The position numbers and the translations under genes were made by a program. From positions 19,592,001 through 19,656,000 of the forward strand of contig OX597835.1 of assembly GCA_951406725.2 (NCBI GenBank): DNA of 64,000 nt, read 5' to 3'. The notes beneath the pieces were generated by a model, which saw only the letters and a list, made by a program, of their open reading frames with translations, searched no databases and had not been told where the DNA came from. How positions within the stretch are numbered: position 1 is the first letter of the stretch; each line of letters opens with the position of its first letter. This DNA comes from Octopus vulgaris. Taxonomy: Eukaryota. Positions 780-39,165 of the stretch are shown piece by piece.

Positions 780-1745
780 TCAATAATTCGGGATTATAAC
801 CTCATTCTCAAGAAAATGACGAACGTTGTCGATGTCTTTTGCGTGTGAGCGTGTGTGGGGGACATGTACAGAAGGACTAGCTTCCTGTACCTCCTTTGTA
901 TTATTGATCTTGGGTTTCTTTTGTTGTATGAGGATAGCCTCAGAGATTCTAAGGTAGTCCCTGATGTGCACTGTGATCTCCCGCGTCTAGCATTTCCGTA
1001 TATGTTTCTTCATGGAAGTGTGTGCCTGCACGTGTTCCTTAAAGCATATATGCAGTTTTTTGGTCGTGCTTCCGATGTAAGCTGTGCCACATTGGCCACA
1101 TGGGATCTCATTTACAAAACATGGCCACTGGCAAAATTTAGGGCCATTGATGGGGCAGTTCGACAATGTACACTTCTCAGAGTAGTGAGGAGTGTTCCCC
1201 TTGGACAGAGCCTTTCTCAGGAAAGGACTGTTGTACATTATCTGTATGTCTAGTCGTTCCCCGAGGACTGCGTCTTGTATCGCTGCAGCAGTTCTGTCAT
1301 CAAAGTGTGGTCGCTTTAGGAAGCACATTCCATTCGGAGTATGCTGGTTCTTCCGGGGTTTATTGACCTTGATGTTCTTCAGGCGCCGTTGTTTAGCTTA
1401 AGATGGTGGGTAGCCATTCAGGTTTAACTCACCGAGGAACTGTTTGGTGTAGACGGCTTTGTCCGTGATGTGGCTACAACCGCTGTTTATACGTGCAATT
1501 TGGTTTCTCACTCATGCGGTTTTGGCTCCGGTGGGTAAGGCTGGTAGTGGACGAAAGTTTTCTGTTAGTTGCCTTTCTATAGAATTTGGTAAATATGGAA
1601 CCTTCCTCTATGATCTTGATGTGCAAGCCGAGTATAGAAGAGGTTCCGGATTCGTCTGTATATTCAATCTCGAATTTGATATTTGTGTCGGTGCTGTTGA
1701 ATATCTGGTATATGTTAATGACCTCATCCCTCAGGGACGTGAGTG
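780..1745 (-). mobile_element. Decayed Penelope-like retroelement: RT C-terminus/thumb plus GIY-YIG endonuclease, frameshifted
   Basis: Minus-strand ORF pieces read IYQIFNSTDTNIKFEIEYTDESGTSSILGLHIKI..FTKFYRKATN (PLE RT 'FNS..PNIKFEIE..LPFLD..YRKPT' region), then CPINGPKFCQ..VNEIPCGQCGTAYIGSTTKKLHICFKEH (GIY-YIG 'VY.I.C..C...YIG.T...L..R..EH') and LRISEAILIQQKKPKIN (GIY-YIG C-terminal 'EA..I....P..N'). Confidence 0.85.
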
Positions 1746-6488: not shown

Positions 6489-7407
6489 GTTTGTTTATGT
6501 ATATACTCGAAAGCATTTTTCTATAGATAAATACATACATGGGACATGTATGAACCTATATCGACATTCCGTCATACATATATAGTTGCAAACATACATA
6601 CATTTATAGATGGGTATATTATATTATATGTGTATGTGTGTGTGTGAACAAATATATCCATCGGACATGTACGTTTCTATCTGTATATTAATGCATGTCC
6701 CAAATATTTCACACTAGATATGTTTATATACAAACCCATGTATATGAACTGTTTTTTTTTCCGTCTGAATGTTTACGCCTATGTTTGTTGCAAATATGGA
6801 GTTACTGTTGCTAGTATTACACTTCTCTTTAAACGTATACGTGGTCACAACACATCATTACTCATAAACACGCAAAGCTAAATCTTACGTATTCTAGGAA
6901 AATATTTAAACATGTATTTCTATAGATATTGTCACGTTCATACACATGATCATATACAACAATACTTCTGAAAGAATAGTTATATTAACCCATGCCCTAT
7001 TTTACTATGTCAATGTATTTGCATACGCGTACCTCTGCACACATACACAGACACACACACACACAGACTCACACACACACAAACATACACACATATATAT
7101 ATATGTTGTTTGTATTTGAAAAGTATTGTGCTTCTTCCCGAATAAATTAATTTGTTCCACATACACACAAAGCCACATATATATATATTTATATATACGT
7201 GTTTTATGTCTCTCTCTCTCTCTCCCGCACTCTCTCGTTCCCTCTCCCTCATTATCTCTCTCTCTCTTTATATATATATATATATATGTGTTAATATAAT
7301 ACATACATATCTGTATGTATATATATATATATATACACGTATCGATCGAAAGTTACATAGATAAATAATTCTTTATATATAAACATACATACATATATAT
7401 ATATATT

Positions 7408-7899: not shown

Positions 7900-9080
7900 G
7901 AAAAATGTCGAAGAAAAATCCCTTCCTATAGTCGGCATAGGTTCTTTAAATTTGGATGATGGATATATATATTCGACAACATGTAGAAAATTTATTGAAG
8001 TTGAAAATATGAAAGAGAAAACTTGCAGACAAAAGGTGCGATCATATCTCGCTTTGCAAAACAATCCAGGTTCTTCAAAAATGACAGAATGTATAAGAAT
8101 AAGCGAAAATAATTCTATAGACACTTTACAAAGTGCACCATCAAAACAGAAACCTCATCAGAGTAAGAAATACTTGTATTTGTAGCAAAATTTGGAAAAT
8201 GAATGGAATCATAATTTTGATGCTCACAGTTTCAAAGAAGACAACAAGGCAGTGTGGTTAAAGAAGTGTAAGATTTACATTGAAACACTCCAGACTCTTG
8301 TAAATGTAAATCAACTGGTCCAGGTAAGATTCCAAAGAATTCGCTTAATGTATCTTCAGTCTCATGCAAATATATATCTTGCTGTTACAGCGTGTTTATG
8401 AAGATCCGGAATAATCCCCGGAATGGCTGACCACTGAAGATATAAATTTTGCCCCCAAAACTGATAAAAGAAAAATTTCTAAGATCCACACTCCCAAGAC
8501 ATGCCTTGTAGAAATGCCATGATTTTTGTAGTTGTTCTAATGGTACACACGTATAATTTTCTTATTAAGAGCGTAAGTTTCTCTAATGACGAAATGGCTG
8601 TAAACGTGGGTCATATAAATGTTTTGACCAAATGATATTTAACAAAACGATTATCTTGATTGTAACACAAGTTAAAAGCATCTTTCAGTAGGCTGGATGG
8701 GGTTCTTTTGACAGTCTTCCTTACACCTAGGTGGAACGTGCGGAGATTTCCATTTGGTGTACGCGGCAGAATGTACGAATCACAACTTGATTTATGTTGG
8801 TTGTACAACAGAACAATTAAACAATATATTTAATGGGCACAGATATTACGTCAGGCATAATAACAGTAGATCGACAGAAATTACTGAAAACTTTTCTTCA
8901 AACGGCTGCAATTTTGAAAAAGATTTCAAAGTGCATATTCTCAGAAAATATTCTGAACTTGCTACAGTTTCTGTCCTCAAAATGCATGAGAAATATGTTT
9001 GCGAGCTATTAACATCATGCCCTGGAGGATGTATAAATTACACGAGAATTTCATCATATCTACTAAAAATTGTTTGATTA
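7900..9080 (+). mobile_element. Second decayed Penelope-like element; GIY-YIG endonuclease relic at 8754-9077
   Basis: ORF 8754-9077 reads VYAAECTNHNLIYVGCTTEQLNNIFNGHRY..CNFEKDFKVHIL, fitting the GIY-YIG pattern 'VY...C....YVG.T...L..RF..HR'. Upstream broken ORF-like sequence is probably the same element; the 5' boundary is uncertain. Confidence 0.65.
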
Positions 9081-38712: not shown

Positions 38713-38914
38713 GATTAATACTTATATATCTATCTATATGTGTGTGTGAGAGTATGTTTATATATATATATCATACGGAGATGTACTCGCAAAGCAAGTG
38801 ATTTGATCTGAGATCGTGTGCTGAAACGAAAACAATTGCAGCGTGGAAGGTGTTTGTAAGCCATTTAAGAAAACACACAAAAACCGTTCGATTCACTTCA
38901 ACATTTAAGTTTAA

Positions 38915-38965
38915 TTTGTCAAAATATTTTCGTCGCTTTAAGACCGCGACCTGTTCACTGACAAA
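38915..38965 (-). ncRNA. Minimal type I hammerhead ribozyme motif with G3-C8 swapped core
   Basis: Minus strand TTTGTCA-GTGAACA-G-GTCGC-GGTCTTAAA-GCGAC-GAAA-ATAT-T-T-TGACAAA: 7 bp stem I, 5 bp stem II, palindromic stem III AATATT, core GUGAACA in place of CUGANGA. Confidence 0.75.
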
Positions 38966-38987
38966 AATCCCTGCTGCATCACGGATT

Positions 38988-39038
38988 TTTGTCAGTGAAA
39001 AGGTCGCGGTCTTAAAGCGACGAAAATATTTTGACAAA
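38988..39038 (+). ncRNA. Mirror copy of the G3-C8 hammerhead with C8 mutated to A
   Basis: TTTGTCA-GTGAAAA-G-GTCGC-GGTCTTAAA-GCGAC-GAAA-ATAT-T-T-TGACAAA. Confidence 0.65.
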
Positions 39039-39131
39039 TTAAACTTAAATGTTGAAGTGAATCGACCGGCTTTTGTGTGTTTCTTAAATGGCTTACAAAC
39101 ACCTTCCACGCTGCAATTGTAATATATATAC

Positions 39132-39165
<34 letters not shown>

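Follow-up and report, generated by a model that had tools for sequence, protein, structure and literature searches.

In the stretch of Octopus vulgaris DNA analyzed here (64,000 nucleotides in full, referred to as the window and used for all numbering below), a palindrome carries a hammerhead-type motif in each arm. We consider it probable that this palindrome is a head-to-head pair of pseudo-LTRs (pLTRs) of a Penelope-like element (PLE), that the family shares a G3-C8 core which is likely compensatory and for which weak cleavage is predicted, and that the hairpin was made at insertion. The identity of the element, the state of the family at core positions 3 and 8 and the asymmetry of the arms are established by the observations described below.

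Organization of the locus

Gapped alignment of the arms (38832-38973 and 38980-39120) confirmed the near-perfect palindrome of 289 bp reported in the initial annotation, with five differences between the arms instead of the four counted there. They are located at 38953/39000 (core position 8), 38887/39066, 38883/39070 and 38971/38982 (beside the centre), the fifth being a 1-nt indel in a T run. The complete palindrome region is predicted to fold into one hairpin of -238 kcal/mol. The segment 38771-38831, which had been included in the same annotated range, is the tail of the element and is present in the left arm only.

With its tail, the left pLTR copy is approximately 207 nt long (38774..38980, minus strand). 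It extends from the usual 5' end of the family to the distal 3' end (reference positions 2 and 208) and matches the pLTR of ORF-bearing copies. Its type I minimal hammerhead motif has a G3-C8 core (38915..38965, minus strand; G3 38958, C8 38953, extra G 38951, G12 38931, U17 38922) and a predicted cut at 38922/38921. The first 30 codons of the element ORF (MAYKHLPRC...) occupy 38775..38864 on the same strand, and the same start runs on into the RT-EN frame in another copy, L170. The tail (about 58 nt; 38774..38831, minus strand) lies between the two 3' end sites of the family, where 3' ends cluster at reference positions ~147-154 and 205-209.

Arm alignment and family comparison indicated that the right pLTR copy (38980..39120, plus strand) is inverted with respect to the left one, tail-less and about 8 nt short at its 5' end. 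It contains the second hammerhead motif (38988..39038, plus strand; G3 38995, A8 39000, U17 39031), with a G3-A8 mismatch. The outward-pointing minimal hammerhead annotated in each arm was recovered, with stems I and II folding as drawn, and position-level reading returned the core sequences initially given, GUGAACA on the left (minus strand) and GUGAAAA on the right (plus strand). Both copies are embedded in a (TA)n-rich target (38750..39161, unstranded) with TA runs at its two ends and no readable target-site duplication. TA runs also flank most family copies examined.

Identity of the element

In the 2.8-Gb genome, a 22-mer taken from the 3' portion of the arm is matched exactly at 7166 places. 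One pLTR copy was found downstream of a GIY-YIG reading frame, and this frame served as seed for a search that gave 150 scored matches. Twenty loci were examined; in 19 of them (one being the seed locus), a motif-bearing pLTR was located 0.76-1.23 kb downstream of the GIY-YIG endonuclease on the same strand. At L164, an open frame of 1025 aa contains YVDD, DKS, a CX3CxxC linker and a Pfam GIY-YIG domain (PF01541, E 1.8e-5); Pfam RVT_1 gave no match on this ORF. The linker, CQSNCAVC, immediately precedes the GIY-YIG domain and fits the CX2-5CxxC signature of the Neptune/Nematis type. The top named relative of the element ORF is an octopus RT-domain protein (59% identity). In L170, the pLTR leads directly into the ORF start MAYKHLPRC, and is thus upstream of the ORF there.

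Because of the L164 frame, the placement of the pLTR near the endonuclease and in L170, and the first 30 codons present in the window, the palindrome arms are, on sequence grounds, pLTRs of a young and abundant EN+ PLE, of the Neptune/Nematis type as judged from the linker. Features expected of EN+ PLEs were found: a single ORF with RT and C-terminal GIY-YIG, pLTRs flanking the ORF in partial tandem, and an inverted 5'-truncated copy with a tail on one end (75 of 82 distinct junctions). The location of the motif is that described for PLE hammerheads (PMC4209133). The Neptune/Nematis-type EN+ PLEs presented by Craig et al. (2021, PMC8557442) likewise have RT followed by GIY-YIG, a CX2-5CxxC linker, an inverted truncated copy, a one-ended tail and microsatellite targets. 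The tail given there measures 30-40 nt, whereas it measures about 58 nt here, and the likeness of clade is one of linker.

Non-LTR retrozymes form head-to-tail tandem units with a type I hammerhead, whereas this locus is a head-to-head pair. A retrozyme-like array was observed elsewhere, with five pLTR-plus-tail units head to tail and TA runs between them (L067:1425-2570). A candidate full-length tandem at C2:171.24 Mb was rejected, as no PLE ORF lies between its two copies. The window also contains a GIY-YIG-like remnant at 8712-9074 (plus strand; PF01541, E 0.0019, below cut-off), probably from another PLE, and at 990-1397 (minus strand) a frame that weakly resembles the linker and endonuclease of PLEs (pairwise E 2e-4).

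Architecture and predicted fold of the motif

The motif is made up of helix I (UUUGUCA/UGACAAA), an extra G between A9 and G10.1, helix II (GUCGC/GCGAC), GAAA, the palindromic AAUAUU as helix III, and U17. Folding of the motifs of both arms gave -14.5 kcal/mol for stems I and II, with z values of -3.0 and -3.4. The hallmarks of PLE minimal hammerheads are present, namely a type I fold, the extra base between 9 and 10.1, G10.1-C11.1, the palindromic helix III and U16.1-H17. The core letters U4 G5 A6, A9, G12 A13 A14 and A15.1-U16.1 are found in both arms and are near-invariant in 127 copies that were not picked by motif. The family lacks the canonical C3 and G8. A Watson-Crick pair between positions 3 and 8 is available in the left arm and in the family state (G-C), but not in the right arm (G-A). 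An Rfam scan of the window returned no match at the gathering threshold.

Folding computations did not predict helix III in the monomer (P = 0.0002), and the intermolecular helix of a dimer was worth just -0.2 kcal/mol. The computed pairing of G3 with U17 (P = 0.68) is a possible trap in this model. A C3-G17 trap is discussed for hammerheads (PMC3884650), and the presence of U17 instead of C17, invariant in 112 of 112 copies, may by analogy matter for a G3 core. In an older subfamily (L141, L130, L115, L270), the 3' strand of helix I often reads UGGCA, which turns a U-A pair into a U-G wobble.

Core positions 3 and 8 within the family

The genome was searched with a pattern of 34 letters in which positions 3, 7 and 8 were free and which leaves out the youngest loop-II variant. 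It gave 2329 matches, and the reversed-pattern control gave none. G3-C8 accounts for 2109 of these matches (90.6%), in agreement with the hammerhead-type family with a compensatory-type core proposed in the initial annotation. A letter other than G at position 3 was present in 74 matches (45 A, 19 T and 10 C by hand count), and none of the 10 with C3 was C3-G8. Another 146 matches combine G3 with a letter other than C at position 8; the first 100 of them comprise 49 G, 41 T and 10 A. The same core, GUGAACAG, also appears in loose-end consensus lines of the runs labelled organisms A, C and D, and is not shown for B.

G is therefore the commonest non-C letter at position 8 in these first 100 of 146, as it is in the youngest loop variant (26 of 54), whereas the equivalent transversion is infrequent at position 3 (10 of 74). 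G8 recurs on all loop-II backgrounds, the youngest included, and in both arms of some palindromes. Its presence on every background speaks against G3-G8 being one old subfamily; either an ancestral allele that has persisted or a hot spot in copying could explain it.

The A8 of the right arm is found in less than 1% of matches, which is close to what the corresponding transversion at position 3 shows. This arm also carries a rare C at 39066, which is absent from the left arm and present in five other copies examined, all of them C8. On this basis, the two arms likely came from different templates, and the A8 is probably a change that this copy acquired, either while inserting or later. The proposal that the right copy was inactivated after insertion is thus retained as far as the origin of A8 is concerned, while the word inactivated extrapolates from published single mutants. 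An apparent systematic marking of one arm by A8 was an artefact that came from using the right arm as query; it disappeared with unbiased patterns.

Related families and the reciprocal swap

Related families were located in the same genome by a canonical-core pattern. One has CUGAUG(C/A)G-GUCAC upstream of a related ORF (L195). Two other motifs read CUGAAGAG-GUCAC and CUGAAGAG-GUCGC, the latter downstream of an endonuclease remnant (L243). Across the core and the helix II 5' strand, CUGAAGAG-GUCGC differs from the window family exactly at positions 3 and 8. Two related C3-G8 families are thus tied to PLE ORFs (L195, L243). The endonuclease fragments of the nearest one are 38-54% identical to those of the window family, and the other core letters all match. 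In an alignment of 10 hand-picked motifs from four families, which counts sequences and not events, pairing holds in 92.7% of cells, both sides have changed in 6 of 11 pairs, and positions 3 and 8 are CG in 6 motifs and GC in 4.

Since the related families of this genome have the same architecture with C3-G8, G3-C8 reads as a natural reciprocal swap of C3-G8, and the sequences suggest that this swap is likely compensatory. It is a single evolutionary event, and 3 of the 9 outcomes possible once both letters have changed are Watson-Crick. A bolder and rather doubtful scenario would be a full reversal of the 3-8 pair with cleavage retained, the genome keeping the C3-G8 sisters, a transposing G3-G8 intermediate in every subfamily and a restored G3-C8 majority.

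Does the motif cleave?

On balance, we consider weak, assisted self-cleavage of the G3-C8 motif slightly more likely than not. For PLE minimal hammerheads, poor cleavage is reported even when they are dimeric (PMC4209133). In PAc, a Poseidon element of the green anole, the C3G/G8C double mutant is reported to restore cleavage in part, and cleavage to occur only with protein (PMC11167929).

Alternatively, the motif may have lost cleavage, G3-C8 being an accident in the history of a single successful master lineage. The hammerhead-derived structure would then be kept by inertia or for another role, such as binding to or folding with the protein of the element, or control of the start site or of translation. 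We regard this as unlikely, even though several observations are compatible with it. Inserted copies mostly retain sequence 5' of the cut site, and their templates were therefore uncut. Moreover, mismatched cores occur in both arms of some palindromes (among them L261, L262 and L280 with G8 and L026 with A8), so that mismatched templates have transposed. The insertion of PAc is described as independent of cleavage, catalytic mutants leaving insertion in vitro unreduced (PMC11167929), and Naiads are described as thriving without canonical hammerheads (PMC8557442). Constraint within the family points in the same direction: among the 127 copies, shared variants affect 1 of 38 core or stem sites versus 12 of 76 other non-coding sites, a difference that is not significant (p = 0.057). 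Private substitutions in these copies are no rarer in the core (1.8%) than in the 3' flank (1.1%), which is expected of dead copies.

What argues against loss of cleavage is that every other core letter is the same as in the nearest C3-G8 family despite the low endonuclease identity, and that both substitutions hit precisely the two pairing letters. A weak hint also comes from a mild excess of arms starting at the predicted cut. By genome-wide hand count, 5 of 40 junctions start there unambiguously and up to 11 of 40 possibly, with approximately 3-4 at neighbouring positions. Four copies examined begin exactly at the predicted 3' product, two of them with long microhomology.

If the G3-C8 motif cleaves, it would be natural evidence for a tertiary 3-8 pair in reversed orientation, otherwise represented in the literature searched by an engineered partial rescue only. 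It would also show that CUGANGA or UUGANAA descriptors overlook whole families and thousands of copies. The natural series C3-G8, G3-G8, G3-A8 and G3-C8, present in related elements of one genome, bears on whether Penelope hammerheads need to cut.

Formation of the palindromes

Head-to-head pairs are common in the family, with 91 pairs among the 321 distinct copies examined, and 84 of the 91 have exactly one tailed arm. When repeated junctions were collapsed, one tailed and one tail-less arm were found at 75 of 82 distinct junctions, and after dropping loci picked by tail the asymmetry still held at 59 of 65. Two sites within the ORF start, separated by about 58 nt, account for the 3' ends. 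This pattern fits the two RT start sites seen in vitro for PAc (PMC11167929), and the inverted copy with a tail on one end described for PLEs (PMC8557442). The palindrome thus has ordinary Penelope insertion architecture, and the tail asymmetry of 75 of 82 junctions cleanly mirrors, at the genomic level, the two start sites observed in vitro.

Most 5' ends are located no more than about 25 nt upstream of the core, a statistic that rests on the loci examined, many of them motif-picked. Among copies without upstream element sequence, 23 of 37 have a G before the AGAUG start, compared with a background of 12.6%, as would result from a copied cap.

We propose that two reverse-transcription events would start at the two 3' start sites of the element, on two uncleaved and probably capped RNAs. 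Joining of the two products through their 5' ends, within a TA-rich target, would yield the palindrome. The G3-C8 motif itself is predicted to self-cleave weakly, as a dimer or helped by the protein of the element.

The palindrome had initially been interpreted as a built-in silencing unit, with an antisense arm that both keeps the ribozyme sequestered and gives rise to silencing dsRNA. Palindromes are frequent, and a transcript reading through one would fold into a hairpin of great stability, but we consider such a function very improbable, since there is little to indicate that complementarity between the arms is maintained. At non-polymorphic sites they diverge almost like unrelated copies (5.1% versus 5.9% for shuffled partners). 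At subfamily sites they differ by 18.5%, versus 40% by chance, and loop II is not the same in the two arms of several pairs. Wide variation is seen in both junctions and arm lengths, and the ribozyme motif is missing altogether from many arms. Moreover, the same inverted pairs are formed by ORF-bearing copies (L164, L166, L170, L174) and by a C3-G8 family, and inverted insertion is a known architecture, described for PLEs generally (PMC8557442, PMC4209133). The hairpin is thus likely a by-product of insertion and not a silencing device.

At L016:1465-1490 and L170:6695-6721, the sequence 5' of the pLTR resembles a branch point followed by a pyrimidine tract and YAG, and is preceded by a long 3' UTR rich in microsatellites. 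It could be an intron end or an initiator. The possibility that the 5' boundary is a splice acceptor, raised by the branch-point-like sequence and CAG upstream, was rejected: copies keep the AG and have no common upstream exon. A start site with a cap-derived G fits this boundary better. Finally, seven loci (L035, L050, L051, L052, L093, L132, L276) share one palindromic insertion with an identical junction, apparently carried in a larger repeated unit.

Comparison with known hammerheads

The minimal hammerheads described in metazoan PLE pLTRs (Cervera & de la Peña 2014, PMC4209133) share with the octopus motif the type I topology, the pLTR location, the extra nucleotide between 9 and 10.1, G10.1-C11.1 and the palindromic helix III. 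They also occur mostly as solo copies, with some opposite-strand pairs. They differ by their C3-G8 core, with a U3-A8 variant, G3 being found in 0 of the 56 aligned representatives of that paper. Given homology to the C3-G8 families, a chance likeness to hammerheads is excluded for practical purposes: despite the absence of an Rfam match, the motif occupies a position in a PLE pLTR at which a hammerhead is to be expected, shares its additional base and its palindromic helix III with PLE hammerheads, and can be aligned in every column with the canonical related motifs.

Natural U3-A8 hammerheads (Perreault et al. 2011, PMC3088659) likewise show that the tertiary 3-8 pair covaries in nature. In the octopus motif, purine and pyrimidine have exchanged places by comparison, and U3-A8 is the sole natural variant named in the core-variation section of that paper. 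PAc (Frangieh et al. 2024, PMC11167929) resembles the octopus element by its hammerhead near the ORF start, its uncleaved RNA template, a tail between two RT start sites within the ORF, and AT-rich targets. It is naturally C3-G8, its G3-C8 version being the engineered partial rescue, whereas the window element has the CX3CxxC linker of the Neptune/Nematis type and an ATG located 3' of the ribozyme.

The PLE minimal hammerhead and the inverted insertion architecture are themselves already known. No natural G3-C8 family was found in the hammerhead literature searched, although the Lünse 2017 survey and its supplement may contain one. The G3-C8 core variant of the PLE hammerhead appears to be new, and is well supported at the level of sequence. 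A second abundant PLE family (L195:1126-1165; frames up to 1312 aa) is C3-G8 and has mostly C instead of A at position 9 (CUGAUGCG), with A9 in some copies.
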